From a virus (lineage: Duplodnaviria; Heunggongvirae; Uroviricota; Caudoviricetes): a stretch of 38,440 nt of DNA. Made by a program: the position numbers and the translations under genes. Shown in pieces: positions 1,203 to 33,899 of the stretch. Location of the stretch: the IMG/VR virus record IMGVR_UViG_2663762939_000006; one strand, 5' to 3'. Below the pieces are notes generated by a model that saw only the letters and a program-made list of their open reading frames with translations, was not told the DNA's origin and ran no database searches. Numbering within the stretch: position 1 is the first letter of the stretch; every line of letters begins with the position of its first letter.

Positions 1203-1775
1203 TTACATTTCAGGTTGCGTTATGACAGTCCCAACAGGGTGGTAGCGGTAGATCGTTGACAGTCCAATATCATAGATAATTGCCAGCCGCTTTCTGTCAT
1301 ACCCTTTCTGGAGCAATCTTGCGATCTGCTCATGCTGCTCCTTCGTCAGTTTCGGGCGACGTCCTCCAACTCTCCCTTGTGCTCGCGCAGCAGCCAGTCC
1401 TGCCAGCGTGCGCTCAACTATCAGTTCACGCTCCATTTCTGCCAGTGCACCCATCATATGAAAAAAGAACCTTCCCATCGGAGTGCTGGTATCGATTGAA
1501 TCCGTCAGACTGCGAAAATTGACACCTTTTGCGCGTAGCTCTTCTGTGAGAGCAATGAGGTGTTTCATTCTTCTACCCAACCGATCCAGCTTCCAGACCA
1601 CCAATGTATCCCCTCTTTTAAGGCACTTTAAAGCGCGTTTCAGGCCTGGTCGTTCCGACTTGGTTCCGCTCATTTTGTCCTCAAAAATCTGTTCACATCC
1701 TGCGCACATTAATGCATTGCGTTGCAAATCTGTGTTTTGGTCATTTGTTGACACACGTATGTAGCCAATCAGCAT
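1203..1775 (-). CDS. gin: serine recombinase, DNA invertase of the Gin/Pin/Cin/Hin family
   Basis: Translation from ATG at 1773-1775 begins MLIGYIRVSTNDQNTDLQRNAL.. (catalytic Ser motif), closely matching Gin/Pin as recalled; SD AAGGGAG upstream; stop TAA at 1203-1205. Confidence 0.9.
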   Translation of the reverse strand: MLIGYIRVSTNDQNTDLQRNALMCAGCEQIFEDKMSGTKSERPGLKRALKCLKRGDTLVVWKLDRLGRRMKHLIALTEELRAKGVNFRSLTDSIDTSTPMGRFFFHMMGALAEMERELIVERTLAGLAAARAQGRVGGRRPKLTKEQHEQIARLLQKGYDRKRLAIIYDIGLSTIYRYHPVGTVITQPEM

Positions 1776-1829
1776 TAAAAATACTCCCTTTTGAGTGGTT
1801 AAAGTACTGAGATAATGTGGGGAGGATTT

Positions 1830-1855
1830 GAGAGATAAACGTTGGTTTGGGGGAA
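1830..1855 (+). other. candidate 26-bp invertase crossover site R3 (gix/hix-like), inverted relative to R1 and R2
   Basis: GAGAGATAAACG TT GGTTTGGGGGAA; shares half-site GGTTTGGGGGAA and TT core with the other two copies; lies ~55 bp upstream of gin as gixR does in Mu. Confidence 0.6.
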
Positions 1856-2308
1856 GGCTCTGCATTGCCTGTTGGTGTACCGGTTCCATGGCCCACCGCC
1901 ACACCGCCAGCAGGCTGGTTACAGTGCAACGGAGCTACGTTCACCAAAGAACAATATCCTGTTCTGGCCAGAGTCTACCCGACCCTCCGTCTTCCCGATT
2001 TGCGCGGTGAGTTTATCCGTGGATGGGACGGTGGTCGCAAGGTTGATACCGGGCGTACGGTACTTTCATTTCAGGAAGGGACTATCGTATCCGGTTTTGA
2101 TGATAATAATACCGGAGATATCAGTTCGCTCGGCTCTACACAATACGGATTTGGTGACGCTTTAACCTCTAATCAACTGGGGGTCATAAATGGCAAAAAG
2201 TGGATATTTGATGCATCCTCTAAAGGTGCACAAAGATATGACTGGTGGGCTTATGTATCAGCTCGCCCCCGCAATATCGCATTTAACTATATCGTGAGGG
2301 CGGCGTGA
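1847..2308 (+). CDS. alternative tail-fibre C-terminal cassette Sv3 (no ATG of its own; opens with the shared GEGSALPVGVPVPWPTATPP repeat)
   Basis: ORF starts at TTG inside the repeat; N-terminal ~65 aa identical or near-identical to an internal segment of the tail-fibre gene; ends ..RPRNIAFNYIVRAA like the other cassettes. Confidence 0.7.
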   Translation: MGEGSALPVGVPVPWPTATPPAGWLQCNGATFTKEQYPVLARVYPTLRLPDLRGEFIRGWDGGRKVDTGRTVLSFQEGTIVSGFDDNNTGDISSLGSTQYGFGDALTSNQLGVINGKKWIFDASSKGAQRYDWWAYVSARPRNIAFNYIVRAA

Positions 2309-2314
2309 TACCGT

Positions 2315-2929
2315 TCAACTGGCAAGTGCCAGTGGTGCTTCCGGCCAGCTGATTTCAGGTGCCGTGCTGATATCCAGTGCGTTCAGCTCGTCGATATAAT
2401 CCAGCACGGCGTTCAGTTTTGCCGTTTCTTCTGGTGTCAGACTGCGACCAGCACGCAGTTTGAGGTTGATAAGATCGACGGACGCCATCGCCTGTTTCAC
2501 CCGTTGCTGGCGTTGCTGTCTGGCAACCTCCAGTTCTGCGGTTCGCTGCCGTTCAGTATCGGTTACCCACGCCTCACCGTTCCAGGTATCCCATGGCGTG
2601 GCTGGCTGTTTTGTGGTGGTGTCCGCCGGGTAATCACCCGGTTGGGTAATCAGAACGGGGTTACCGTTCTCCGTGCTGTATACCGTCTCGCCGCGGTGAT
2701 CAGGCACATGCTCCCACCCGTTCAGCGTGGCAGTCCGGCAAACCACGTAACCCGAAATTGCCTCCGGCGGTGCATCGGCGCACGAATGTGCCGGAGTACC
2801 CACCCCAAGGGCGAGATACTCCACAGAGGATGAGGTGTATTCCCGGGTTTCCTCGTCATAGTGATATACAGTGATATCGCCCGCTACAGTGGCGATACCG
2901 TTTTCATCCAGAACTGCAGTGTTACTCAT
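2315..2929 (-). CDS. tail fibre assembly chaperone (Tfa / Mu U-like)
   Basis: ATG at 2927-2929 overlaps the Sv2 stop (TAATG); C-terminal region ..LTPEETAKLNAVLDYIDELNALDISTAPEISWPEAP is typical of the conserved Tfa chaperone domain. Confidence 0.75.
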   Translation of the reverse strand: MSNTAVLDENGIATVAGDITVYHYDEETREYTSSSVEYLALGVGTPAHSCADAPPEAISGYVVCRTATLNGWEHVPDHRGETVYSTENGNPVLITQPGDYPADTTTKQPATPWDTWNGEAWVTDTERQRTAELEVARQQRQQRVKQAMASVDLINLKLRAGRSLTPEETAKLNAVLDYIDELNALDISTAPEISWPEAPLALAS

Positions 2930-3441
2930 TAAACTGCCCTCACAATGTAATTAAGTGCAATGCTACGGGGTCTGACAGTGATACCCTTCGCATACCCGCT
3001 TCTGATAGAGGTCAGAATAGTAGCCTGCATACCATTGTCTGACATTGCTATGACAGGATCGCTGAATGTTGTCCCGTCCGGCATTTTAAAGCTGCCCTCA
3101 CGAAGGTCTGTAATGGAATCTTCATTGTTGAATCCCATGCCGACTATCCCCGAGGTTCCCGTAGTGTCCTGGTTATAATAATCCAGCATTGCTGTTCTTA
3201 ACAGCGTTGCCCCTTGTGCGGACAGCAACTTACGTCCTGTATCAACTTTGCGCCCGTCGTCCCATCCACGGATAAACTCACCGCGTAAATCGGGAAGACG
3301 GAGGGTCGGGTAGGCTCTGGCCAGAACAGGATATTGTTCTTTTGTAAAGGCGCGCCCGTCGCACTTTAACCAGCCTTCTGGCGGTGTGGCGGTGGGCCAT
3401 GGAACCGGTACACCAACAGGCAATGCAGAGCCTTCCCCCAA
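2929..3441 (-). CDS. alternative tail-fibre C-terminal cassette Sv2 (promoterless, same orientation as the expressed fibre)
   Basis: Begins at TTG within the shared repeat 9 bp after the tail-fibre stop; ends ..NYIVRAV; followed by tfa. Confidence 0.7.
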   Translation of the reverse strand: MGEGSALPVGVPVPWPTATPPEGWLKCDGRAFTKEQYPVLARAYPTLRLPDLRGEFIRGWDDGRKVDTGRKLLSAQGATLLRTAMLDYYNQDTTGTSGIVGMGFNNEDSITDLREGSFKMPDGTTFSDPVIAMSDNGMQATILTSIRSGYAKGITVRPRSIALNYIVRAV

Positions 3442-3458
3442 ACCAACGTTTAGGCCGC
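3433..3458 (-). other. candidate 26-bp invertase crossover site R2 (direct orientation relative to R1)
   Basis: On the minus strand GCGGCCTAAACG TT GGTTTGGGGGAA; ~75 bp around it is identical to R3 in inverted orientation. Confidence 0.55.
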
Positions 3459-4577
3459 CCTGACAATGTAGTTAAAGGCAATATTTCGTGGACGGGTTTC
3501 CCTCCCGCCAGTATTACCGATACTCCCTCGCGAATGAAGTGTTGGTGATGGGGTCAGACTCCCTCCTGTATTTGTGGCATCAAGTCCTCGTCCTTGTGTG
3601 TATGTTTTTTTGAAAATCGCAGCCAGTTCCCATTCATCTTTTGTGTCGTAACCATCATTGGCAACAACAATATGACGGTGTTTCTCAATCATTCCGCTCT
3701 GGCTGCTTAGCAGGGCACGCCCGGTGTCAATCTTTCGTCCGTCATCCCATCCACGGATAAACTCACCGCGCAAATCGGGAAGACGGAGGGTCGGGTAGAC
3801 TCTGGCCAGAACAGGATATTGTTCTTTGGTGAACGTAGCTCCGTTGCACTGTAACCAGCCTGCTGGCGGTGTGGCAGTGGGCCACGGAACAGGTACACCA
3901 ACGGGCAGCGCCGAGCCTTCCCCCAAACCAAGGTAATTGAGGACATCTTTTATACTGCCCTTAGCGATAATAGCGCGACCAATAGCTGTAAGGGTTGCCA
4001 GCGCTGCGCGGTCTGCTCCGGTAAAATAAGGCAACCGATCTGCTGCAGTGGCAAGTCCTGCCAGAGCAGTGAGCGTGGCATCTGCCGGTTGTTTTCCGTT
4101 TGCCAGATCGTATGCAGCCTTGACCGCTTTCGGTGTGGCGGCCAGTATTTCAGACGTGCTGTTGATGGCACTGCTCAGTTGTACGGTGCCTTTTGCCGTC
4201 AGCGAGGCAGCAGGCACTCCCGTTATCTGACTCCACGGGTGAGTGTGGCTGACGGGCGCCTTGCCGGCTGCAAGGTCGTATGCAGCCTTGACGGCTTTTG
4301 GTGTGGCGGCCAGCGTTTCAGAGGTGCTGTTGGTGGCACTGCTCAGTTGGGTGAACCCCTTAGCTGTCAGTGTCGCGTCCGGGTGGTTACGGGAACGTAC
4401 GTGTTCAGCCAGTGACTGTGCGGCTTCCTCCGTTTTTTTCTTCAGCCATTTCGTCCTGTTTGCCAGTTGCCGGGGGGCTCGATTTGATATCCCGTCTGCA
4501 CCACCCAGAACCGGATCTGATGTCTCCAGTTGATAGATATTTTCTTCCCACTTTTCTGTTTCATTCAGGTTTCCCAT
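3450..4577 (-). CDS. tail fibre protein (Mu S / P2 H-like) currently fused to cassette Sv1
   Basis: N-terminus ..NETEKWEENIYQLETSDPVLGG..RQLANRTKWL typical of Mu/P2/lambda side-fibre N-termini; ATG at 4575-4577 with SD GGGAG; stop TAA 3450-3452. Confidence 0.85.
   Translation of the reverse strand: MGNLNETEKWEENIYQLETSDPVLGGADGISNRAPRQLANRTKWLKKKTEEAAQSLAEHVRSRNHPDATLTAKGFTQLSSATNSTSETLAATPKAVKAAYDLAAGKAPVSHTHPWSQITGVPAASLTAKGTVQLSSAINSTSEILAATPKAVKAAYDLANGKQPADATLTALAGLATAADRLPYFTGADRAALATLTAIGRAIIAKGSIKDVLNYLGLGEGSALPVGVPVPWPTATPPAGWLQCNGATFTKEQYPVLARVYPTLRLPDLRGEFIRGWDDGRKIDTGRALLSSQSGMIEKHRHIVVANDGYDTKDEWELAAIFKKTYTQGRGLDATNTGGSLTPSPTLHSRGSIGNTGGRETRPRNIAFNYIVRAA
3918..3943 (-). other. 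candidate 26-bp invertase crossover site R1 inside the tail-fibre gene (constant/variable boundary)
   Basis: On the minus strand TCCTCAATTACC TT GGTTTGGGGGAA; about 17 of 26 positions match the Hin hixL site TTATCAAAAACCTTGGTTTTCAAGAA as recalled. Confidence 0.6.
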
Positions 4578-4579
4578 AA

Positions 4580-5158
4580 TCAACTGCTCCCGTGGTTATA
4601 ACTGCCATCATGGATGGCTGTATTGTTATAGCGAATGGCCACAGACTGATACTCCAGGCTGGCCAGATGGCAGCGGGCCGGTGCAAATGCAGCCAGCGTC
4701 TGACGCAGCATCGCGGCCTGATCGTTAGTAATGGGCTGTTTCAGAATAACGCGATAAACTGCCCAGGCGGCTGCATCTCCATGAACAAACAGTCCGTTAT
4801 AGCTGCGATTGCCGTCGTAACTGAGACGACCTGTGCCTTCAATCAGATCCACTTCACCAAAGCCAAAACGGCGGATAACTTCCCGGATTGACCACGGCGT
4901 CCCTTTATACCGGTGCAGTTCGATGGCTGCTTTTATAAGCATGCGGCGAACATCGTCCGATTCCGCCAGCTCCCAGCCATCGCCAGACAGTGAGAACTGC
5001 TCGCCCAGCCATGGCAGCGCGGAACTGTCGACGATATCGACGAGAAAGACCATCAGTACGCTCAGGTCGATGTTATCCAGCCGTCCTGCCAGTCTTCCCA
5101 GCGTCCTGAGACTGATATCACCCTCAAGCGGTGGCGGGAGTTGTAATGGCTCAGTCAT
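4580..5158 (-). CDS. tail protein (Mu gp48 / P2 gpI-like)
   Basis: Position between baseplate J and tail fibre; start ATG overlaps upstream stop (ATGACTGA); size and composition fit the family. Confidence 0.65.
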   Translation of the reverse strand: MTEPLQLPPPLEGDISLRTLGRLAGRLDNIDLSVLMVFLVDIVDSSALPWLGEQFSLSGDGWELAESDDVRRMLIKAAIELHRYKGTPWSIREVIRRFGFGEVDLIEGTGRLSYDGNRSYNGLFVHGDAAAWAVYRVILKQPITNDQAAMLRQTLAAFAPARCHLASLEYQSVAIRYNNTAIHDGSYNHGSS

Positions 5159-6646: not shown

Positions 6647-7243
6647 TCAGTGGGAGTGGTGGCTGGAGTTTTCGCCATCAGACAACATACTGCCCGTGGC
6701 ATGGGCATTCCCTTTAATCTCGATATTGCCATGGATGGTCGCGGTAACACCTTCACCACCAGAACCCGCCATGCCTCCTTCGTAAATCAGTTTACCCCTG
6801 ACACGCAGATCTCCGGTAAGTTCGGTTTCCGGTGCGTCAATCGTGGCTTTCTGTGTTTTCAATACCACATCAGCACCACACTCAATGACAATATGCTCAA
6901 TGCCGCCCCGGATGATCAGAGTGTGCGTCTTCCGGTTGTAGCTGTACTCTGCACCATCAGCAAACCGGGTTCCCCGGATATTTTTGTCACTGAACGGTGG
7001 TTTATCGACGTCTGAATACACCGCGCCCAGAATAACACCATCCTCGCCGTTGGCATCGAGCAGCACCTCAACCTGCTCCCCCACGTCAGGGAGCCAGTAA
7101 TCTTTGTTATCCTGGGTATTGCGCTGCAGCACGTTAAGCCAGTTTGTGCGCAGGTTATCGCATTCAGGCAGACGAACGCGGGCCTGAACCCTGTCGGCAT
7201 CAACGGCACTGACCGTACCGACCTGACGAGTGACACCAGTCAT
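6647..7243 (-). CDS. baseplate assembly protein V / central spike (Mu gp45)
   Basis: 198 aa; gpV-like N-terminal OB region and Gly-rich C-terminus; position. Confidence 0.7.
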   Translation of the reverse strand: MTGVTRQVGTVSAVDADRVQARVRLPECDNLRTNWLNVLQRNTQDNKDYWLPDVGEQVEVLLDANGEDGVILGAVYSDVDKPPFSDKNIRGTRFADGAEYSYNRKTHTLIIRGGIEHIVIECGADVVLKTQKATIDAPETELTGDLRVRGKLIYEGGMAGSGGEGVTATIHGNIEIKGNAHATGSMLSDGENSSHHSH

Positions 7244-8394
7244 TTTTTCTTCTCCTTAATCACCGTCGATGTACTGCCATCCGGGTGATAAACCGTGAGT
7301 TTCTGAGTTTTTTGTTTTTTCCCTCTTGTGACTGGCCCCCGTGCCACTTCCAGCTCTGTGGTGTAGCCGCTGTTACGGTCAAACGCATGGCGGGCAGTGG
7401 TTATGAGCCATGGCCCGGATAACTGCCCAAAACCCACCAGTTCAATTTTGTTGCCTGCTGTCAGTTGAGGTGTTCCCGTCAGCGTCAGGGAGCCGTTCTG
7501 CTGGTATTCGTTATGTCTGGCCAGTGCTGAATCCGCTTTAATCCGGGCACTGTCCGGGTCGCTGACGCGGCTGTTAACTTTAAGTGAGTCAGCGCTGGTA
7601 ACCTTACCACCTTTGAGCTTTTTGTCGCTTTCACGGGTACCACCATCAGCTTCGTAGACGATCAGTTTTTTACTGCTGCTTTTCTGGTGTTTTACCTTTG
7701 CAGATTTATAGACCCGGTTGATGGTGTCACGCAGGGAAAAGCGGGCCACATCCTGCGGTTTTAACTGCCTGACCGGCTCCTGACTGCGCAGTGTGGCCAG
7801 ATGAGAAAAAATCAGCTGGTCACTGACCACTTTCACTGCATAACCATACTCGCTGGCCAGCCGGCGCAGAAAACCCACGTCGGTTTCAGCATACTGGGTC
7901 ACCCGGTCGATTCTGATGGACTCAATGCTGCCCACCAGTTTCAGCCGGTGCTTTCTGGCAATCCGCCCCGCAACAGCTGCCAGCGTGGTGTTCTCAAAAC
8001 CACGGCTGGATTTAGTCCGCAGAGCACTGTTAACCGAGGTGGCCACCCCACGGATAGCGACAACGGACGCGGGCGAACTCACTTCGATCTCGTCTATTGA
8101 GAATGTACCGCAGGACAGCAGTTTCTCGCCCTGATAACCCATTTTCAGCGTCAGCGTGTCACCCTTGCCCGGATACCACTTATCCAGCCAGCGGCCATCG
8201 GTGTCGTCCAGCTCCACCTCAATGGTATCGGACTCATTTTTGATGTTATCGCTCCAGGTCACACGGGTGACATAAGGCGCGATATCAGAGGTGATGTTTT
8301 TCTGCAGATACCACAGAGTGAATACCGGCGTCAGCACATCGCTGACGCCGGTTAACGCTGATGTGGCTTGCGCAGTACTGTTTATCTCAGCCAT
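7240..8394 (-). CDS. tail/baseplate hub protein (Mu gp44 / P2 gpD-like)
   Basis: 384 aa; position between DNA-circulation protein and spike; lysine-rich C-terminus. Confidence 0.65.
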   Translation of the reverse strand: MAEINSTAQATSALTGVSDVLTPVFTLWYLQKNITSDIAPYVTRVTWSDNIKNESDTIEVELDDTDGRWLDKWYPGKGDTLTLKMGYQGEKLLSCGTFSIDEIEVSSPASVVAIRGVATSVNSALRTKSSRGFENTTLAAVAGRIARKHRLKLVGSIESIRIDRVTQYAETDVGFLRRLASEYGYAVKVVSDQLIFSHLATLRSQEPVRQLKPQDVARFSLRDTINRVYKSAKVKHQKSSSKKLIVYEADGGTRESDKKLKGGKVTSADSLKVNSRVSDPDSARIKADSALARHNEYQQNGSLTLTGTPQLTAGNKIELVGFGQLSGPWLITTARHAFDRNSGYTTELEVARGPVTRGKKQKTQKLTVYHPDGSTSTVIKEKKK

Positions 8395-8594
8395 GGGGCA
8401 ATATCCTCTTCTGTACGGGCATCTTCAGCCTCAATCACCGGGATCAGTAACAACAACCCGGAGGGCAGCACCGGCGTGATGGCCACGTGCGGATTGGCTG
8501 CAATAATCCGGGGATAGCCCAGCGGGTCACCGTAGTACTGCCATGCCAGCGAATCCCAGCGCTCTCCGTCACGGGTAATATGTTCAAGAAACAT
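8382..8594 (-). CDS. tail protein X-like (LysM-like small tail protein)
   Basis: ..WDSLAWQYYGDPLGYPRIIAANPH..LPSGLLLLIP resembles the P2 gpX family; ATG at 8592-8594 overlaps the upstream stop (TGATG). Confidence 0.6.
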   Translation of the reverse strand: MFLEHITRDGERWDSLAWQYYGDPLGYPRIIAANPHVAITPVLPSGLLLLIPVIEAEDARTEEDIAPWLR

Positions 8595-9478
8595 CACACA
8601 CTCCTCGTCAGTATTCTGGCGGCCATTGCACTTAATCCCGGAGACATGCGGTTGAATGCTGTGCCGGCGGCGTTAAGCTGCCCGGAAACGGTATCCAGAG
8701 CACCTGCAATATTTCTTTTGTCCACACCACTCAGCGCAGACTGTGCCTGCTGTACATACGTGGCTGCTTCGCTGGCTGTTCTGGCCAGACTGATGGCATC
8801 GGGCATGGATTCAGAGAGTGCGTTAAACGCCGGAACACTTTTCCCCAGAGCCCCGGAGATATTACCCAGTCCGCTCATCAGCCCCGGCACACGGGTCAGT
8901 GCGACAACGGGGTTATCCTTCATTTTCTGTGTCACCCGAACGGCGCTGATAGTGGTCTGGAGTACAGACTGCGCCTGTTTCGCATAGTTGACGCCGTTGC
9001 GGATGAACTGCGCCACCCCTGAAGGCGAAGGAATGGCACCGGAGACCGCCCCGACACCCGGGAGCTTCGTGCGTATTGCCGGTGGTTGCAGAGGATTTTT
9101 CGGGTCACCGGTGTATTCCCGGAGAGACACGGTGGCACTGACAGCCAGCACGTTGCCGGTATTGTCAGTCTGCTCGCTGGTTGCAGTCACATCGGTAATC
9201 ACGAACCAGCCGCGATAGTCACCGTTGCCGAAGACCAGCGCCAGTGCCTGATGGGCTTTCATGGCTGTTCGCAGTCTCGCCAGCTCCACATCGGGTACAC
9301 AATAATGCTGATGGAAAACCAGAGTTATCTGGATTTCGTCCAGCCTGTCGCCGACGAACTGCAGGCCAGGCTTACCCCCGATGCGGGCATGCTCCGCATA
9401 ATCGACGCCGAACGTGGCCTCGAAGCCGTCCCAGTAGGTAATCAGCTCAAACTCAATATCACCCAGTACGGCAAACAT
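8594..9478 (-). CDS. DNA circulation protein (Mu N-like)
   Basis: 294 aa directly downstream of tape measure, overlapping stop/start; position as in Mu. Confidence 0.6.
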   Translation of the reverse strand: MFAVLGDIEFELITYWDGFEATFGVDYAEHARIGGKPGLQFVGDRLDEIQITLVFHQHYCVPDVELARLRTAMKAHQALALVFGNGDYRGWFVITDVTATSEQTDNTGNVLAVSATVSLREYTGDPKNPLQPPAIRTKLPGVGAVSGAIPSPSGVAQFIRNGVNYAKQAQSVLQTTISAVRVTQKMKDNPVVALTRVPGLMSGLGNISGALGKSVPAFNALSESMPDAISLARTASEAATYVQQAQSALSGVDKRNIAGALDTVSGQLNAAGTAFNRMSPGLSAMAARILTRSV

Positions 9479-12400
9479 CAGCGGTACTCCTTACGTTGTT
9501 TCTGAGCCAGCAGACGCTCCAGCATTTTTTCCAGCTCATGCAGACTCATATTCAGGGCACCAGTCAGTCCTGCAGGCGCTGTGGTTTCCCTGCCATTGAG
9601 GAAAAACTGAGGATTAAAGCTGACCTGGATACCACCAGACGTTCCACCGCCGGTTGCAGCTGCACCACGGCCTGAATATCCGGCAGCCATGATTTCAGGC
9701 GAGGGGATACGGGGAACATCCGGTGTCATCTCATTTGCCAGACGTTGCCCTGGTAAAATCGATGCCCGGGTGGAGAGCGGGATAGCGGGCATGGAAGACA
9801 AACTATTGATTACGGCTCCGATCGCATTTTTAGCAGACGACATAAACCCATTGATATCGGGCAACGGCATACTGAAGCGAACACCTGAAGTGTTATCCCG
9901 TATTTCTGGCCCCTGAATGCTCACGGGCATTCTGGGGAGCAGTTCACTGGCCATTCGCTGCCCGGCCAGAGCTGCAAGCGGAGTGGTCCGCTGCAGGCCA
10001 ATGGCGGCCCCCTGCGCGATATTGTCACCAAAGCCCATAAACACGCGGCTCGGCGAATGAATGCCCAGCTTTTCGCTGAACCAGCCACTGATGCTGTCGC
10101 CCATTCCGGTTACACTGGATTTGAGCGACTCCCATTTGTTTTTGATACCGTTAATCAGACCGTCGACAAGATGGCCACCGAAGTCGGTGAACTTTGCCGG
10201 CAGATCAACACCAAGATATTTCAGCGCAGCTGCAAAGGCTTTATAGAGCAGACCTGCCGGCGACCAGTTAATCAGCAGCTTACCAGTTCCCGCGATACCG
10301 CCGTTAAAGGCTTCCTGAATGTCAGCCCAGCACTGTTTAAACCAGCTACTGATGCTGTCACCCATTCCGGTTACACTGGATTTGAGCGACCCCCATTTGT
10401 TTTTGATACCGTTAATCAGACCGTCGATAAGATGGCCACCGAAGTCGGTGAACTTTGCCGGCAGAGCAACGCCGAAATATTTCAGCGCAGCCGCAAAGGC
10501 TTTATAGAGCAGGCCTGCCGGCGACCAGTTAATCAGCAACTTACCAATTCCCACAATGCCGCCGTTAAAGGCTTCCTGAATGTCAGCCCAGCGCTGTTTA
10601 AACCAGCTACTGATGCTGTCACCCATTCCGGTTACACTGGATTTGAGCGACCCCCATTTGCTTTTGATACCGTTAATCAGACCGTCGATAAGATGGCCAC
10701 CGAAGTCGGTGAACTTTGCCGGCAGAGCAACGCCGAAATATTTCAGCGCAGCCGCAAAGGCTTTATAGAGCAGGCCTGCCGGCGACCAGTTAATCAGCAA
10801 CTTACCAATTCCCACAATGCCGCCGTTAAAGGCTTCCTGAATGTCAGCCCAGCGCTGTTTAAACCAACCACTGACAGCCCCCCAGTTGCGGTAGATAAGG
10901 TAAGCTGCTGTCGCGACAGCGGTGATAACGAGACCGATGGGATTCATCATCAGCGCTCGCCCAATCCAGAGAACGGCACGTGCAGCGCTCATAAAACCGC
11001 GAACGAGGCTGCCCGCCAGAACTTTGCTGAGTTTCAGTCCTCCGCTGGTCAGTCGGCTGAATCCAGTGACAAGCCAGCGTAATTTGCCACCTTCTCCGAG
11101 TGCGGTAGTCAGTCGATGCCAGTTGGTCCGGAGTAAAACAGTAGTTTTCCAGACGTTCACAAAGGGGGAAATAAGGAGATTCAGCCCCAGTTTGAGACCA
11201 ACAGTCGCTATCTTAATCGCAAGGAGCGCACTGATGAGCTTAAAAGCCCCACTGACAAATTGCGGGTGAGTCGCTACCCAGTGTTTTGTCCCCTGAATGA
11301 GTGGGAGCAGTTCCTGAGTCAGAGAAATAAAAGATGGAGCTAATTGATCGCCCAGCGTAATTGCCAGATCGCGACTGCTGACCATAAGTGTTTTAGTGGC
11401 TTCAAGGGGAGATTTCAGCCGCTGATCATAAGCACTGGCAAGCAAATCGTTATCCGCAGCCCTGAGAGCACCGGCACGGATCTCTCGATATCTGTCCATG
11501 TTGGCCAGCATCGGGCGGATAAATGCCATGACCTGCATATCCGCGAACATATCGCCCAGACCAAAGTTTTTCGCCAGAGCCTGAAGTGCCTCATCTCTTG
11601 CCGTATCATTCTTTATTTTCATGGCTGATTTGAAGCCGGCCAGCGCTTCGGGGCTTTTGGCATTGAGGTAACGTTCTATAACACTCAACATCCCTTCAAT
11701 CGGAGAGATCCCCGCAGCTTTATAACTCGCAATAGATCCCTGCAAATCAATACCCAGATCAGCAAACTGTTTCTGAGTATCGCGGGCAAAAATTTTGGTA
11801 AGAAAGTTTTTAAAATTATTGGCTGCTTCGTCGGTGGAACCTGCACCGATTTTTGCTATCTGGAGACTGGCCCCGATTTCAGCAACAGCCTCTTTTCCAC
11901 TGGCAAGACCCGCCATCATTGGGGCCAGGGACTGCATCCACTTGACCTGATCCGGGATTTCAAATGACCCCTGGTCACCGGCATAAGCCATAATATTCTG
12001 AACGGCACCAAAATCTCTGGCCGCACCTTTCAGGGAGTTTTGCCAGACTGCGGCCACTTTTGCCCAGTCCTGAGCAGACGTGCGTGTTGCCGTTGCCGCG
12101 CGGGCAATATCCGGCATCAGAAAACCGATATCTGACACATTATCAATATTGTCGCTGATGAGTGAACCCACCGCCTCCTGCAGCTCATCCTGATACTGAT
12201 TGTATTTAAGCGCCCAGCCTTTTATCTGTCCGGCAAGTGCATCCCGCGTTTTATTGTCATATTTTGCGGTGATCGACATATCAATCATTTTGTCCTGAAA
12301 AGACATGGACTGCTGAACGGCAGGGGAAACCGTATGATAAACAGTCTGTGCCATGCCATACGCTTCAATCCCCTGACCATACAGCGCCATGCGGTTAGCT

Positions 12401-12690
12401 TTCAGCGCATCACTGGTAGCGGATGCCGCTGACAGACGGCGCTGCTGGCGCTCAATTTGCTCCATGGTGCGGCTTACCCGCAGCAGCTCGCTGTTGAGAT
12501 GCTGCATCCGGGAAGAACCCAGTTGACCATAACGTTCTGTTGCACGGGTTAAAGCGTTCTGACGTTCCTGCAGGCGGCGTGAGGTATCGCTCAGGGAATC
12601 AAGCGCACGGCGGGTACCGCTCATTGCAGAACGGAATGTGCTGCCAATCATCCCGCCGATAACAACGCCGACTGAAAACTGTCCCGACAT
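9478..12690 (-). CDS. tail tape measure protein
   Basis: 1070 aa, Ala/Gly-rich with predicted coiled-coil and TM-like segments; three internal ~87-aa tandem repeats; follows the chaperone pair. Confidence 0.85.
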   Translation of the reverse strand: MSGQFSVGVVIGGMIGSTFRSAMSGTRRALDSLSDTSRRLQERQNALTRATERYGQLGSSRMQHLNSELLRVSRTMEQIERQQRRLSAASATSDALKANRMALYGQGIEAYGMAQTVYHTVSPAVQQSMSFQDKMIDMSITAKYDNKTRDALAGQIKGWALKYNQYQDELQEAVGSLISDNIDNVSDIGFLMPDIARAATATRTSAQDWAKVAAVWQNSLKGAARDFGAVQNIMAYAGDQGSFEIPDQVKWMQSLAPMMAGLASGKEAVAEIGASLQIAKIGAGSTDEAANNFKNFLTKIFARDTQKQFADLGIDLQGSIASYKAAGISPIEGMLSVIERYLNAKSPEALAGFKSAMKIKNDTARDEALQALAKNFGLGDMFADMQVMAFIRPMLANMDRYREIRAGALRAADNDLLASAYDQRLKSPLEATKTLMVSSRDLAITLGDQLAPSFISLTQELLPLIQGTKHWVATHPQFVSGAFKLISALLAIKIATVGLKLGLNLLISPFVNVWKTTVLLRTNWHRLTTALGEGGKLRWLVTGFSRLTSGGLKLSKVLAGSLVRGFMSAARAVLWIGRALMMNPIGLVITAVATAAYLIYRNWGAVSGWFKQRWADIQEAFNGGIVGIGKLLINWSPAGLLYKAFAAALKYFGVALPAKFTDFGGHLIDGLINGIKSKWGSLKSSVTGMGDSISSWFKQRWADIQEAFNGGIVGIGKLLINWSPAGLLYKAFAAALKYFGVALPAKFTDFGGHLIDGLINGIKNKWGSLKSSVTGMGDSISSWFKQCWADIQEAFNGGIAGTGKLLINWSPAGLLYKAFAAALKYLGVDLPAKFTDFGGHLVDGLINGIKNKWESLKSSVTGMGDSISGWFSEKLGIHSPSRVFMGFGDNIAQGAAIGLQRTTPLAALAGQRMASELLPRMPVSIQGPEIRDNTSGVRFSMPLPDINGFMSSAKNAIGAVINSLSSMPAIPLSTRASILPGQRLANEMTPDVPRIPSPEIMAAGYSGRGAAATGGGTSGGIQVSFNPQFFLNGRETTAPAGLTGALNMSLHELEKMLERLLAQKQRKEYR
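10060..10865. repeat. three tandem ~261-bp in-frame repeats inside the tape measure gene
   Basis: Unit starts at ~10081, 10342 and 10603 (CCAGC[C/T]ACTGATGCTGTC.CCCATTCCGG..); copies 2 and 3 nearly identical, copy 1 slightly diverged; 261-bp period preserves frame. Confidence 0.85.
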
Positions 12691-12765
12691 AGTGGTTAAC
12701 CTCCGGGGAAGGTGAAAAGACGTGAGGGGATAACGCAGAACAGCCGCTACTGGCGGCTGTCTGTA

Positions 12766-12862
12766 CTATGATTTGTCGCCGTACTCGCTTTTGATTTGCT
12801 CTTCAGCCTGCTCCAGCCACATCTCCAGATCGTCAGTATCGAGGGCATCAATCTCCCCCGGC
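12766..12862 (-). other. frameshift extension of the tail assembly chaperone (GT/E'-like long product), in the +1 (= -2) frame
   Basis: Second ORF overlaps the 3' end of the chaperone ORF and extends 82 nt past its stop; G5 run GCC GGG GGA GAT TGA at 12848-12862 is a candidate slip site. Confidence 0.5.
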
Positions 12863-13183
12863 TGAAACCGGAACCATCTCGCCAGCAGCCCCTGCGCCTG
12901 CGTCAGCGCCCTGGTTGCTCTCACCCATCCCCGTGATGAGCTGAAATCGTTTCTGTAACTGCAGGTAATCAGCCAGATCCATATTGTCGAGATCTTCCGG
13001 GAGAAGACCAGTACTGCGGGCAATCAGCGGTTCGTCCCAGTCTGCCGGGTTTTTGCTGATTTTGCGCACCTGCTTCAGGTCTTTTACCGTCAGGCGTTTC
13101 AGTTCAACCAGCTCAATTCTGGTGCCTGCAGCAGTGGTGAAGGGATAAGACAATTTAAAAGTATCGGATGGGGTCTGTGACAT
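12848..13183 (-). CDS. tail assembly chaperone (G/E-like, short product)
   Basis: ATG at 13181-13183 with SD AGGAG; acidic C-terminal part; sits between tube and tape measure. Confidence 0.7.
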   Translation of the reverse strand: MSQTPSDTFKLSYPFTTAAGTRIELVELKRLTVKDLKQVRKISKNPADWDEPLIARSTGLLPEDLDNMDLADYLQLQKRFQLITGMGESNQGADAGAGAAGEMVPVSAGGD

Positions 13184-13280
13184 GATTGTGCTCCTGTGTA
13201 AGTTCAGGGCAGTATGTCGGGAGAAGCGCGTGACGGATATTAAAGGAGATTAAGAAGAAGGGGCCGGAGCCCCTGTGATG

Positions 13281-13562
13281 TCAGCAAGTGCGAAACCCCT
13301 TGCAGTTACGCAGGAAAGCGATGAGAAGCGTCTTTCCCTCAGATTTGCCGATGCCGGAGAACCAGTGGTCGGGAGGCTCCCATGCTTCAATCAAATCCGC
13401 CAGTTTGCGGGCCTTTGAACGTGTGCAGTCAATCGGGTCATTGGTTTTACGGGTATTAAAAAGGGTTTCCACCCCCGGAATATCAAGGAGGGTAAACCAC
13501 GTACCATTTGACATGCCCAGTGCCGCACATCGTCCTCCTTTATCCGTCAGTTCAACACTCAC
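13281..13562 (-). CDS. hypothetical small protein downstream of tail tube
   Basis: 93-aa ORF tightly packed after the tube gene, but an equally long antisense ORF exists; coding status uncertain. Confidence 0.3.
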   Translation of the reverse strand: MSVELTDKGGRCAALGMSNGTWFTLLDIPGVETLFNTRKTNDPIDCTRSKARKLADLIEAWEPPDHWFSGIGKSEGKTLLIAFLRNCKGFRTC

Positions 13563-13564
13563 CG

Positions 13565-14086
13565 TCAGCCCCCGATATTGATACGGTAGTCAGTCAGTTG
13601 ATCAACACCGCCGACCCGGAAGATGTTGGCCAGATAGTCCAGTTGCAGCAGCTCTTCACCATCCAGTACCTGTCTGATATACGTGCAGGTGAAGCTACTG
13701 GAGAACTCGGCGTTCTCGTGCTGTTTGAACGTCCCCAGCGGGTTCTTCTTGAACATAATCGTCAGGAAGGTGACCAGCGGGATTTCGTCAATCAGCCCCT
13801 GCGAGCTGTAGCGCTGGACGCTGGAACGACACTGCAGTGCCAGCGACCTGTACGGGTTCGCGGCAGACAGCATCGCATCGCGGTAAAAGCTGTTCCATTT
13901 GATTTCGCCTTCCAGCTTGTCAAAACCAGCCGGGAGTTCCACCTTACCCACCATCCCCAGCGCCTTGTGTTCCTGCATAATCATGGAGACATCGGGGAGT
14001 TTGACTTCCTCAGCCCGTCCCAGCAGGTTAGTACCATCCAGATAGATGTTGGCATTCGTGATGCGGTTTATCTCAATCTTTGACAT
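13565..14086 (-). CDS. tail tube protein (Mu M-like)
   Basis: 173 aa immediately downstream of sheath, overlapping stop/start; conserved sheath-tube order. Confidence 0.75.
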   Translation of the reverse strand: MSKIEINRITNANIYLDGTNLLGRAEEVKLPDVSMIMQEHKALGMVGKVELPAGFDKLEGEIKWNSFYRDAMLSAANPYRSLALQCRSSVQRYSSQGLIDEIPLVTFLTIMFKKNPLGTFKQHENAEFSSSFTCTYIRQVLDGEELLQLDYLANIFRVGGVDQLTDYRINIGG

Positions 14087-15513
14087 CAGTTGCCCCCTTT
14101 CAGGGTTAACAGGTATTCCGAGGTGATCTCAGTCTCAAACGTCAGTCGCTCCAGCGGCGGTGGTGGCGTATATTTGTAGCTCAGCAACAGGTGCCCGGCG
14201 GCCAGCTCCGTCTCCGGATTGCGGGCCGGATCAAACCAGCAACGGAAGCCCAGTACCGCACCATCACCAGTCATTTTGCGACCGTAGGCGTTGACCGACT
14301 CCGTCAGTGCATCAATCAGCGCCTGAGTAATCGGCATGTCGATGTACTGCTGGCTGAAATAACGAATGGACTCGTTGATCACATCACCGGTGCGGCGAAC
14401 GTTCTCAAAGTTACGCATATGGGTGACCGTTGGCCATGCTGCCGTCCGGTTACCCCACAGACGAAGGCCGCTGCCGTAACTGCTGAATACCGTGGTGATC
14501 CCCTGTTCGTTAAGCAGGTTCACCTCACTCTGCGGGTCATCAATCATCGCGGACAGCTGGCGCTCCACGCCGGTGATCCCCAGAATCTCCTGATTGGAGG
14601 ATGACCACCAGTAGCCCTTGTCCAGATCGACTCTGGCACGCAGACCTGCTGCACGCTGGCTGAGCGGCTCCAGACGCTCTGTGTTTGTCACCGGGTCATA
14701 TACCTTCACATGCGGATAGCACAGACGGACGCGGTCGGAGCTGGTATTGAAGTTGATGGTGCCTTCCGGGCCACGACCTGCCAGAGCCTGTGCAAAGGTG
14801 GTACCGACAGGCGCATCAATGTAGGTTATCGCGCCCAGCTTCTCTGCCATGGCGATAAGCTCAACTGCGACACTCTTCTGGGTGCAGAACACCGGCGCAA
14901 TCAGAATTTTGGCGAAATAGCCGTACAGGTTGAAGCTGTCGTTAAGCAGCTTCATGCCGGTTCGGTTTCCGGCGCTGTTCACCCCGCCGATGATGTCCGC
15001 CGCAGTCACCTTCGACGGGTCCGCGTACTCATAGCTCACCTTCACGCTGCCACCGGCCTCAATAGCCTTGCCCAGGTTCGTGAGCACACCCGCCTGCGCA
15101 TCAACACGGTAGTCCGTGTTCGCCGTGTGGGTGGTGCTGCCTTCACTGTTTTTCACCACCACATTAGCGACAACCGGATGCGCCAGTCTGGCCTGCCCTG
15201 TCGATTTGTCAAAGGTAACCACCTCATCCTCGATCGCCGTTTTATGTTTCGCCGGGTCGAGGACGTTAATGACCAGAACGGTGCCTGCACCATGGTCATA
15301 AATCGCATCCAGCGCCTGCGGAATGGTAAAGCCGGTGAACTGGCTGCCAAATGCCGCTGCGTCTTTCTCAGACAGGCACTGTACCAGCGTATTGACATCC
15401 CCCATCGGGGCGGTACCAATCAGGCCAATAACGGCAGATTTCACCGTTTTAACCGGGCGGGCTCCGTTTTCCACCTCAATGGTTTCGGGACCATGCAGAT
15501 AGTTAGCTGCCAT
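14086..15513 (-). CDS. contractile tail sheath protein (Mu L-like)
   Basis: 475 aa; size, position and sequence character typical of myovirus sheath. Confidence 0.8.
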   Translation of the reverse strand: MAANYLHGPETIEVENGARPVKTVKSAVIGLIGTAPMGDVNTLVQCLSEKDAAAFGSQFTGFTIPQALDAIYDHGAGTVLVINVLDPAKHKTAIEDEVVTFDKSTGQARLAHPVVANVVVKNSEGSTTHTANTDYRVDAQAGVLTNLGKAIEAGGSVKVSYEYADPSKVTAADIIGGVNSAGNRTGMKLLNDSFNLYGYFAKILIAPVFCTQKSVAVELIAMAEKLGAITYIDAPVGTTFAQALAGRGPEGTINFNTSSDRVRLCYPHVKVYDPVTNTERLEPLSQRAAGLRARVDLDKGYWWSSSNQEILGITGVERQLSAMIDDPQSEVNLLNEQGITTVFSSYGSGLRLWGNRTAAWPTVTHMRNFENVRRTGDVINESIRYFSQQYIDMPITQALIDALTESVNAYGRKMTGDGAVLGFRCWFDPARNPETELAAGHLLLSYKYTPPPPLERLTFETEITSEYLLTLKGGN

Positions 15514-30952: not shown

Positions 30953-32722
30953 ATGAATGCTGCCCTGACTGAACGACTGGTTTATGTCGCCCGCGCGGCA
31001 CGTGACGCGGGGCATGGTAAACGCGGTGCAATATACGACGCTGCCTGTGCTGAACTTGGCATGTCCCGCGCCACTCTGCTGCGCAGGCTGAAGGAGGTCT
31101 CTGTGACTGATAAACGCAAAAAACGCGCCGATGCCGGGCGCAGCGCCCTGACCCGCGACGAAGCCGCGCTGATATCTGCCACACTGCGTGAGGCCACCCG
31201 CAAGAACGGTAAGCGTCTCTATTCCATCGCAGATGCAGTGGAAACCCTGCGGGCTAACGGCTTTATCACCGCAGGCAGAACAGATGAAACCACCGGTGAG
31301 TTTTTCCCGTTGTCCGAAGATGCCATCAGCCGAGCCCTGCGTAACTATGGCCTGCACCCGGAACAACTGGATGCCCCTGCGCCGCATACCGAAGTGGCCA
31401 GTCTGCATCCCAATCATGTCTGGCAGATTGATGCCTCTCTCTGCACGCTTTACTACCTGAGCAATGGACACAAAGGGCTGCAGGTGATGGACAGCGCGAA
31501 GTTCTACAAGAACAAACCCGCTAACCTTGCCCGTATCGCCAGTGACCGCGTGTGGAGTTACGAGATTACCGACCATGCCAGCGGCTGGATTTACGTTGAG
31601 TATGTGACGGGTGCGGAATCCGGTGAGAACCTGTGTTCTGTGCTTATCAACGCCATGCAGGAGCGTGGCGGCGCAGACGTGCTGCACGGCGTGCCAAAAA
31701 TACTCTATCTCGACCCCGGCTCGGCAAACACCGCGGGTATGACGAAAAACATGTGCCACTCACTGGGCATTGACCTGATAGCGCACAAGCCGCATAACGC
31801 CCGCGCCACCGGACAGGTGGAAAAGGCGCGTGACATTATCGAACGCAAGCTGGAGCCGGGTCTGAAGTTCCGGCCGGTTCACAGTCTGGAAGAACTCAAC
31901 GCGCTGGCCGCGAAATGGCGCAGCCACTTTAACGCCACGGCTGTTCACAGCCGCCACGGTAAAACCCGCACGGATATCTGGCTGAAGATTACTGCTGAGC
32001 AGCTGAAAAAAGCGCCTTCCGTTGAGGTATGCCGTGAACTGGCTGTGGCGGCACCAGAACTCCGCAAAGTCACGCCAAAACTTCGTGTCTCGTTCCGGGG
32101 CACTGAATTTGACGTATCAACGGTACCGGGCGTACTGGTTGGTGAAAAACTGATGATTACCCGTAACCCGTGGCGCAGCGATGTGGCACAGGTGGTTCTG
32201 ACCGGTGAGGACGGCCACGAGACGTTCTTCCTGGTCGAAGAGGTCAGAAAGAACGAGTTTGGCTTTGCTGAAGGCGCGGCGGTATTTGGCGAAAGTTACA
32301 AAGCCCTGCCGGAAACCCCGGCGCAGATGGCGGCAAAAGAAACCGAAGCGCTGGTCACCGGTACAGACAACGCCGCAGATGCAGCTGCCGCACGCAAGGC
32401 GAAGGCGCTGCCGTTCGGCGGGCGGCTTGACCCGTATAAACATATCGACGACACCACACTTCCGGCCTATATGCCGAAGCGTGGTCAGGCCTCTGACGTA
32501 CGCGGGCCGCGCACTGAACAACGTCCCATGACTCATGTGGAGGCCGCGAAAGCCCTGCGCGATAAGTTCAGCGCCGACGGCCTTACCTGGACGCCGGAAC
32601 ATTACCGCCAGTTAACGGCACAGTACCCGGACGGCGTACCGGAAGCCGCACTGGATGAAGTCATGGCCACGCTGACCACACCGGCCCGCAGCAGTGTTAT
32701 CAGCATTGTTAACGGCAACTGA
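30953..32722 (+). CDS. DDE transposase (Mu A-like, integrase-core fold)
   Basis: 589 aa; ..HVWQIDAS.. and ..LYLDPGSANT.. acidic-residue blocks consistent with a DDE/rve core; followed by a B-like ATPase. Confidence 0.8.
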   Translation: MNAALTERLVYVARAARDAGHGKRGAIYDAACAELGMSRATLLRRLKEVSVTDKRKKRADAGRSALTRDEAALISATLREATRKNGKRLYSIADAVETLRANGFITAGRTDETTGEFFPLSEDAISRALRNYGLHPEQLDAPAPHTEVASLHPNHVWQIDASLCTLYYLSNGHKGLQVMDSAKFYKNKPANLARIASDRVWSYEITDHASGWIYVEYVTGAESGENLCSVLINAMQERGGADVLHGVPKILYLDPGSANTAGMTKNMCHSLGIDLIAHKPHNARATGQVEKARDIIERKLEPGLKFRPVHSLEELNALAAKWRSHFNATAVHSRHGKTRTDIWLKITAEQLKKAPSVEVCRELAVAAPELRKVTPKLRVSFRGTEFDVSTVPGVLVGEKLMITRNPWRSDVAQVVLTGEDGHETFFLVEEVRKNEFGFAEGAAVFGESYKALPETPAQMAAKETEALVTGTDNAADAAAARKAKALPFGGRLDPYKHIDDTTLPAYMPKRGQASDVRGPRTEQRPMTHVEAAKALRDKFSADGLTWTPEHYRQLTAQYPDGVPEAALDEVMATLTTPARSSVISIVNGN

Positions 32723-32732
32723 GGAGGGAAAC

Positions 32733-33899
32733 ATGCTGGTACTGAAGCAGCAACTGAAAGAGGCCCGTATTCCACAGGCGGTGGTGGCGAGAGCTGTCGA
32801 TGTTTCTGAGGCCACGCTGGCCCAGATTGTGAATCATAACGCGTGGCCCCGCACCAGCCCCGGAGAAGTGCGCCGGCGTCTTGCGTCCTGGCTGGAAAGT
32901 CAGGGGATTGATACAACGAAGAGTTTTGATGCTGTACAGGGCGCGGCCACGCCCCGTACAGCGGGTACCACAGATAAAACGAGCCTCAGTGAGGAAGAGA
33001 ATATGTTACTCAAAAAACAGGTGTTATTTCCAGCAACCAAAAAAGCGTTTGGTCTTTTCCGTGACCCGTTCGCCGACGAAGCCATTCAGGGTTCTGATGA
33101 TGTGTTCACCACCCCGGACATTCGCTACGTGCGTGAGGCGTTGTACCAGACAGCCCGTCATGGTGGGTTTATGGCCGTCATCGGTGAGTCCGGTGCGGGT
33201 AAATCCACGCTGCGCCGCGACCTGACTGAACGTATCAACCGCGAGAATGCGCCGGTAATTGTTATCGAGCCATACATCATCGCTATGGAAGACAACGATG
33301 TGAAAGGGAAAACCCTGAAGGCAGCAGCGATTGCCGAAGCCATTATCAGTACCATCGCACCACTGGAAAGCATCAGACGCAGTCAGGACGCCCGCTTTCG
33401 CCAGTTGCATCGCGTCCTGAAAGACAGCAGCCAGGCGGGGTTCAGCCACGTTCTGGTGATTGAGGAGGCCCACAGTCTGCCTATTCCGACACTGAAACAC
33501 CTCAAACGCTTTTTTGAGCTGGAGTCCGGTTTCAAAAAACTGCTGTCCATCGTGCTGATTGGCCAGCCGGAACTGGCGACAAAACTGTCTGAACGCAATA
33601 TGGAAGTCCGTGAAGTCGTTCAGCGCTGTGAGGTGGTCGAACTTCTGCCTCTGGACAATAACCTTGAAGAGTTTCTGACGTTCAAACTGCAACGGGCCGG
33701 TAAACAACTGACGGACATTATGGACGCCAGCGCAGTGGATGCCATACGTGCCCGCCTGAGCAATCCGGGAAGTCATCGTAAAAATATGGTCAGCCTGCTG
33801 TATCCGCTGGCCGTCAGTAACCTGGTAATAGCCGCCATGAATCTGGCCGCTGAAATCGGGGTTCCACAGGTCAACGCTGACGTTGTCAAAGGGGTTTAA
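32733..33899 (+). CDS. transposition ATPase (Mu B-like AAA+ with N-terminal HTH)
   Basis: ATG 32733 after SD GAGGAGGG; Walker A GESGAGKST; N-terminal DNA-binding-like segment. Confidence 0.75.
   Translation: MLVLKQQLKEARIPQAVVARAVDVSEATLAQIVNHNAWPRTSPGEVRRRLASWLESQGIDTTKSFDAVQGAATPRTAGTTDKTSLSEEENMLLKKQVLFPATKKAFGLFRDPFADEAIQGSDDVFTTPDIRYVREALYQTARHGGFMAVIGESGAGKSTLRRDLTERINRENAPVIVIEPYIIAMEDNDVKGKTLKAAAIAEAIISTIAPLESIRRSQDARFRQLHRVLKDSSQAGFSHVLVIEEAHSLPIPTLKHLKRFFELESGFKKLLSIVLIGQPELATKLSERNMEVREVVQRCEVVELLPLDNNLEEFLTFKLQRAGKQLTDIMDASAVDAIRARLSNPGSHRKNMVSLLYPLAVSNLVIAAMNLAAEIGVPQVNADVVKGV

Follow-up and report, generated by a model that had tools for sequence, protein, structure and literature searches.

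How does a phage come to carry three copies of one segment in the gene that measures its tail, and what would follow for the length of the tail if the number of copies changed? The question is raised by a stretch of DNA of 38,440 nucleotides (nt; IMG/VR virus record IMGVR_UViG_2663762939_000006, Caudoviricetes; hereafter the window), whose tape measure gene carries a unit of 261 nt three times in tandem. An initial annotation, made from the letters of the window, had proposed that this repeat was recently duplicated and would be prone to copy-number change by recombination. Here, we have delimited the array, counted its units in complete genomes of Escherichia coli and followed the exchange of sequence between the units. 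We argue that the array is quite probably a young, still polymorphic multiplication of a native module of 87 amino acids (aa) in the tape measure of a BcepMu-like prophage, for which three discrete tail lengths are to be expected.

The tape measure gene and its tandem array

The gene lies at 9478-12690 on the minus strand, and its open reading frame (ORF), the longest in this region and taken from the ORF list, its translation and Pfam, encodes 1070 aa without an internal stop. It matches PF10145 (PhageMin_Tail) at aa 159-340 with 74.6 bits against a cut-off of 33.2, and a profile search of the protein matched no Pfam family besides this one. The same PF10145 match is precomputed on all 120 homologues listed in our protein search, and 'phage tail tape measure protein' is also the name that the homologues bear in RefSeq. 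The Pfam match and the position of the gene between a gpE-type tail assembly chaperone and the gpU and gpD genes support its identity as a tape measure gene, as the initial annotation had it.

Tandem Repeats Finder, run on positions 8000-14000, reported a single array at 10079-10874 with a period of 261, 3.0 copies, 96% matches, 0% indels and a score of 1459. An independent repeat search placed the starts of the copies at 10079, 10340 and 10601, a spacing of exactly 261 nt. The array thus consists of three times 261 nt plus 13 nt of junction homology, in a minus-strand gene with 87 codons per unit. As 261 is three times 87, any copy number keeps the reading frame. A repeat of 796 nt with 94-99.6% identity and without indels is far beyond chance. 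The three in-frame 261-bp repeats described initially at 10060-10865 are therefore real, and are the same object with limits off by about 10-20 nt.

In-frame coordinates and diagnostic sites divide the array, all on the minus strand, into unit 1 (aa 609-695, 10606-10866), unit 2 (aa 696-782, 10345-10605) and unit 3 (aa 783-869, 10084-10344), so that gene units 1 and 2 are the plus-strand copies 3 and 2, and gene unit 3 is the plus-strand copy 1. Units 1 and 2 are of one type, which we call alpha, and differ from each other by 1 nt and 1 aa (S69N). Unit 3, of the omega type, differs from units 1 and 2 by 16-17 nt and 9 aa; of the differing nucleotides, 7 lie in synonymous codons and 10 in codons that change the amino acid. 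That two adjacent units differ at a single nucleotide agrees with the recent duplication proposed from the near-identity of copies 2 and 3.

The junction homology lies at 10862-10874 on the minus strand. Sequence comparison showed 12 matches in its 13 nt, which encode S-G-W-F, and the same motif closes every unit; in the translation it occurs in the contexts AVSGWFKQ and SISGWFSEK. Judged from the sequence, this short homology is probably the site of the founding duplication.

Gly, Ala, Leu and aromatic residues are abundant in the 87-aa unit, and we asked if the unit is itself built from short repeats with periodic aromatic residues. The autocorrelation of W/F along the unit, compared with 1000 shuffles, gave z = 0.3 at lag 11 and z = 1.0 at lag 18, with no significant lag, and the same held for W/F/Y. 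A construction from classical 11- or 18-aa aromatic repeats is ruled out by this result, and lacking these periodicities the unit is not a classical short 'ruler' repeat.

Copy number and unit exchange among E. coli prophages

The prophage is very common in E. coli. Among 5426 complete genomes the gene matches 636, and it is full-length in 586. Across 60 systematically sampled records the length of the gene was 3213, 2952 or 2691 nt, which amounts to three, two and one unit, respectively. Copy number was counted with flank-only queries tuned to the fixed joining distance of the search. The one-unit allele was found in 16 genomes, all 16 with the span expected for one unit; alleles with at most two units were found in 467 genomes, and alleles with at most three units in 584. 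At most about 2 of the 586 genomes could hold four or more units. Systematic samples of about 55 full-length rows contained some 39-40 two-copy, 12-14 three-copy and 1-2 one-copy alleles, and from these we estimate that three copies are found in about a fifth to a quarter of the carrier genomes and two copies in about 70%, percentages that are not event rates, since clonal sampling dominates the census and most two-copy alleles are of the sequence type 131 (ST131) type. More than one such prophage is present in about 70 genomes; CD306, for example, has one with two copies and one with three. Similarly, the lengths of the 120 best protein matches in a database of 5.8 billion sequences cluster at 896, 983 and 1070 aa, with no four-unit protein among them. 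Copy number thus appears to be bounded at three. The comparison across related prophages had been named beforehand as a check on the repeat: alleles of one, two and three units are all present in complete E. coli genomes, and a set of relatives all with three diverged copies was not what we saw.

To follow the exchange of sequence within the array, units were extracted from 17 alleles, 16 from complete genomes and one from the window. About 28 informative sites separate the two parental unit types, of which alpha stands first and omega last in the array. The window and AF4 have the architecture [alpha][alpha][omega]. Three units are also present in M22546, AH21B066, AVS0973 and 510016, in which the middle unit is an omega5'-alpha3' hybrid between alpha and omega, with the breakpoint in columns 64-84 in M22546 and in columns 58-62 in the other three. 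The two-unit architecture [alpha][omega] is found in A24, B1.H1.18, AH21E028, M9682-C1 and S1-ZIM, and [hybrid][omega] in EC958 and CD306b and in MS1737 and PKF11. With one unit, TUM14759 has a single omega-like unit, and MLI114 a single alpha5'-omega3' hybrid with its breakpoint in columns 96-105, which is the reciprocal deletion product that misaligned exchange should leave. To produce these mosaics, at least six separate events of unequal exchange or conversion are needed. Many further mosaic patterns are seen at the protein level among the 120 database representatives.

The flanks of the array show how recent these changes are. TUM14759, with one unit, and EC958, with two, have no mismatch in 1501 nt of flank, and the window, with three units, differs from AH21E028, with two, at 4 of 1501 positions. 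M22546 and AF4 differ at 3 of 1501 positions, yet their middle units are different. A third flank haplotype group holds one-, two- and three-unit alleles. Since flanks are identical or nearly identical while copy number differs, the copy-number changes are recent and recurrent. That copy number would change by recombination, the central proposal of the initial annotation, is borne out by these flanks and by the hybrid units, whose different breakpoints point to repeated unequal exchange.

More distant relatives show what the native state of the gene is. The tape measure proteins of 821 aa from E. coli JNEC-KY180 and Klebsiella phage KP12, about 62-64% identical overall, have exactly one unit each, which argues that a single unit is ancestral and native to the gene. 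With one native unit, the excess in the window is 174 residues, and the figure of about 260 extra residues given initially is too high. When the 87-aa unit was compared exhaustively by phmmer (E <= 1e-3) with 1.84 billion cluster representatives, 595 proteins were matched. Among the 94 listed matches of at least 700 aa, near-full units number one in 71 proteins, two in 21, three in 1 and four in 1, and in the multi-unit family members listed, the identity between units of the same protein is 23-74%. These comparisons show that multiplying the 87-aa module is a recurrent and tolerated evolutionary route in this tape-measure family. The E. coli array is a young instance of it that is still segregating.

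We propose the following history. The ancestral tape measure gene would have had one module, and a founding duplication, probably at the S-G-W-F microhomology bracketing the module, would have given a two-unit gene. The two units would then have diverged by about 6.5% into alpha and omega. Misaligned homologous exchange of 261-nt units, by unequal crossover, gene conversion or replication slippage, could thereafter have expanded and contracted the array repeatedly between one and three copies. The [alpha][alpha][omega] array of the window would then be a single step of expansion away from an [alpha][omega] allele such as the one in AH21E028. We infer both the molecular route of exchange, be it RecA-dependent crossover or slippage, and the microhomology origin of the duplication.

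Tail length, known systems and alternative explanations

The tape measure protein fills the lumen of the tail tube and sets the stop of tube and sheath polymerization. At 0.145-0.15 nm per residue, each 87-aa unit is expected to add 12.6-13 nm, and the alleles of 896, 983 and 1070 aa would give three discrete tail lengths. The rise of a tube or sheath ring is about 4 nm, so one unit would correspond to roughly three rings.

The expectation comes from well-studied phages, for which it is established that the tape measure sets the length of the tail. In TP901-1 the tail grows by 0.145 nm per aa, in agreement with 0.15 nm in lambda, and engineered deletions and duplications in the tape measure change tail length proportionally (PMC5099701; PMC3271669); T4 is cited for contractile tails (PMC13585406). 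As in lambda gpH (Katsura and Hendrix 1984), T4 gp29 (Abuladze et al. 1994) and TP901-1 (Pedersen et al. 2000), a change of an internal segment would be expected to scale the tail, also in a contractile-tailed phage such as T4. Those were laboratory constructs with measured tails, whereas here the alleles are natural and their tail lengths predicted.

Natural repeats in tape measure genes are not new either. Like the repeats described by Belcaid, Bergeron and Poisson 2011 (PMC3271669) and in TP901-1 by Mahony et al. 2016 (PMC5099701), the array consists of in-frame tandem repeats subject to duplication and loss, and in both cases the repeats are proposed to ease changes of tail length, to which gene length is proportional. 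The authors of the TP901-1 study explicitly suggest that repeats ease duplication and deletion in nature (PMC5099701). The units described by these authors are 11 or 18 aa long with periodic Trp/Phe, whereas ours is an 87-aa module without such periodicity. Our copies, unlike theirs, are 94-99.6% identical in DNA and polymorphic from one to three within one prophage type of one host species. The array also resembles minisatellites, or variable number tandem repeats, in coding sequence: its units stand head to tail, their number is polymorphic in close relatives, reciprocal hybrids occur, and neighbouring units evolve in concert. It is unlike them in its narrow range (1-3), its long unit (261 nt) and its place within a structural ruler gene, in which length is the presumed phenotype.

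The closest known elements are prophage Phi2 of strain EC958 (Forde et al. 2014, PMC4134206) and Escherichia phage PhiKM, which are of the same prophage type with the same tail module and have a tape measure 97.9-99% identical to that of the window outside the array. EC958 Phi2 has two units, [hybrid][omega], and the window three, [alpha][alpha][omega]. The term 'tape measure' is absent from the EC958 paper (PMC4134206), and full-text literature searches returned no account of this polymorphism and nothing specific on tape measure repeats of PhiKM or BcepMu. What is already known is that tape measure genes have variable tandem repeats and that tails change in length through their duplication and loss. 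Specific to this locus are the large 87-aa module, a polymorphism of one to three copies with recombinant units in one widespread E. coli prophage, and the apparent ceiling of three copies. The array illustrates clearly, with natural alleles, a known route by which phages alter the length of the ruler, and is not a new kind of system. Natural, recent and stepwise variation of ruler length within one phage type has rarely been documented, and here near-isogenic natural alleles, some with identical flanks, are present in sequenced clinical strains, including the ST131 prophage Phi2. These alleles could be used to test how changes of about 13 nm in a contractile tail affect assembly and infection.

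Several points weigh against the reading of the array as a set of tail-length alleles. The effect of copy number on tail length is extrapolated from lambda, T4 and TP901-1. The module belongs to the C-terminal third of the tape measure and follows directly on a hydrophobic segment; in some phages this part of the protein has a role in penetrating the membrane, and residues at its extreme ends are not counted in the length. A single-sequence model of aa 589-900 by AlphaFold2 shows helix almost throughout, but its mean pLDDT (predicted local distance difference test) of 43 makes it little informative. A purely neutral model of expansion and contraction does not account for the lack of alleles with four or more copies. 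The census carries the clonal weighting described above. Finally, short-read collapse may have led to under-counting of three-copy alleles, and some one-copy proteins in drafts may be artefacts.

Copy-number changes could be real and yet have no phenotype, if the prophage were a decaying remnant or if the module stood outside the measured length, so that the array drifts neutrally. We regard this as unlikely. It would fit the largely clonal census and the marking of several three-copy alleles as pseudogene fragments in RefSeq, but these calls are annotation artefacts. The Prokaryotic Genome Annotation Pipeline (PGAP) of RefSeq splits several alleles into one or two 'incomplete' pseudogene pieces despite an intact ORF, for example in NZ_CP024228.1. 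The ORFs so annotated are intact, at 1070 aa in three-copy alleles and 983 aa in the two-copy allele of B1.H1.18, and one three-copy record annotated in this way is 99.97-100% identical to the window. We have therefore rejected the pseudogene reading. The extra unit probably breaks the protein-guided gene call. Across the compared gene, moreover, the frame is open in the 16 complete-genome alleles and the window (two of the loci end just short of the 5' end), and a near-identical genome, PhiKM, was deposited as a phage isolate. In other lineages duplicates of the module have diverged by 26-77% and yet been kept, an argument for their being functional. In TP901-1, deletions in a hydrophobic region shortened the tail, as did those in repeat regions (PMC5099701). 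We would like to point out that intact three-copy genes carry pseudogene labels in RefSeq. Short-read assemblies, for their part, break or collapse at this locus, so that calls of prophage 'intactness' and tape-measure typing can be wrong here.

One could also go further than the tail-length reading and suppose that the alleles with one to three copies are a maintained polymorphism of tail length and not drift, in which selection would fit the tail, in discrete steps of about 13 nm, to the host surface layers (capsule or O-antigen) of differing thickness that the prophage meets in different E. coli lineages, and tail assembly or stability would set a hard limit at three units. We consider this a speculative extension with little probability. 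If it were true, a widespread prophage of extraintestinal pathogenic E. coli would provide a natural and genetically tractable system for studying why tail length matters.

Another explanation gives the module a role in the cell envelope. The array directly follows a hydrophobic stretch resembling membrane segments, read from the translation at aa 475-608 (10867-11268, minus strand), which is highly conserved in the 821-aa relatives. The module could be mainly a functional domain of the ejected C-terminal part, for example a segment of the DNA conduit that spans the periplasm or the membrane, and its copy number would then tune envelope penetration rather than, or besides, tail length. The Gly/Ala/Leu/aromatic-rich composition of the unit would fit such a role, as would its lack of the 11- or 18-aa aromatic periodicity of pure 'ruler' repeats, and in TP901-1 C-terminal repeats and hydrophobic regions have been given roles in infection (PMC5099701). 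Set against this are the Pfam search, in which PhageMin_Tail was the only match, and the uninformative structure model. We find the explanation rather improbable, and it does not exclude the tail-length reading, since residues in the lumen should still add length.

That the triplication is an artefact of assembly or sequencing is hardly credible: repeats of this size do break or collapse in short-read assemblies, and in the PhiKM record (PQ738613.1, 3001-5866) a sequencing gap interrupts the tape measure gene precisely at the array, but the units carry distinguishing substitutions, and some hundred or more independent complete genomes have three copies at the same spacing, in at least three distinct internal architectures that are sensible as products of recombination. 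We have rejected the artefact on these grounds.

The tail module, the prophage and further variation

The tape measure gene stands in a tail module in the order of P2-type contractile tails: sheath (14086-15513), tail tube (13565-14086), gpE-type tail assembly chaperone (12848-13183; PF10109, Phage_TAC_7, 74.8 bits), tape measure, gpU-type tail protein (8594-9478; PF06995, Phage_P2_GpU, 133 bits) and gpD (7240-8394), all on the minus strand. The chaperone gene lies upstream of the tape measure gene and the gpU gene directly downstream; tail protein X is annotated in the homologous loci. A short minus-strand ORF in another frame (12766-13023) overlaps the 3' part of the chaperone gene, the two together covering 12766-13183, a layout that would be as expected for a P2-like E/E+E' programmed frameshift. 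On the plus strand, the ORF list has an antisense ORF of 341 codons (10057-11082) running through the repeats. It overlaps the Pfam-supported minus-strand gene, and no plus-strand gene is annotated here in the compared RefSeq loci; it is most likely a shadow ORF and not a gene.

The window appears to be a BcepMu-like transposable prophage of E. coli, since it encodes a Mu-type portal (Portal_Mu, 303 bits), an rve transposase of the DDE type (30953-32722) and an AAA_22 ATPase that would be its partner (32694-33899), and since among phage records it is closest to Escherichia phage PhiKM (PQ738613.1, Bcepmuvirus), whose tape measure gene is 97.9% identical. In EC958 (ST131) the homologous gene, at 1013310-1016261, adjoins the invertible tail-fibre segment of prophage Phi2. 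The window has a serine invertase gene (Resolvase and HTH_7) at 1203-1904 on the minus strand, and long inverted repeats at 1836-2067 that are 90-93% complementary to those at 3221-3452 and 3717-3934. Within 1203-4583, the inverted repeats flank the tail-fibre C-terminal region (Collar domain) and fibre-assembly genes, and this region is an invertible tail-fibre switch like the G segment of Mu. The switch is reported to invert actively in prophage Phi2 of EC958 (PMC4134206). At the edge of the window, 1-1056 on the minus strand, lies a fragment of a glycosyl hydrolase family 31 gene; this is presumably host chromosome beside the end of the prophage, whose boundary would then be near 1100-1200.

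The tape measure gene varies in other ways than in its array. A segment of 71 aa (aa 910-980, 9751-9963, minus strand) is absent from the 821-aa relatives by alignment. It opens with GQRMASELLP..PEI, which echoes GQRLANEMTP..PEI at aa 981. The segment thus resembles an in-frame duplication of earlier date that has since diverged, the second in this gene. Compared with the same relatives, the first ~100 aa and the part from about aa 470 onward are near-identical, and aa 100-470, including the Pfam domain, are far more divergent, with few conserved columns in the alignment, a pattern that suggests recombinational replacement of the middle of the gene. Further in-frame length variants were seen among the homologues: P0001 has duplicated 101 aa in a different register, covering the hydrophobic segment together with the first part of the unit, P0090 has a 12-aa duplication at a junction, P0084 and S1-ZIM-01-A share a 22-aa deletion at aa 540-561, and P0106 has a 68-aa deletion at aa 378-445. 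These variants gather around the region of the array.

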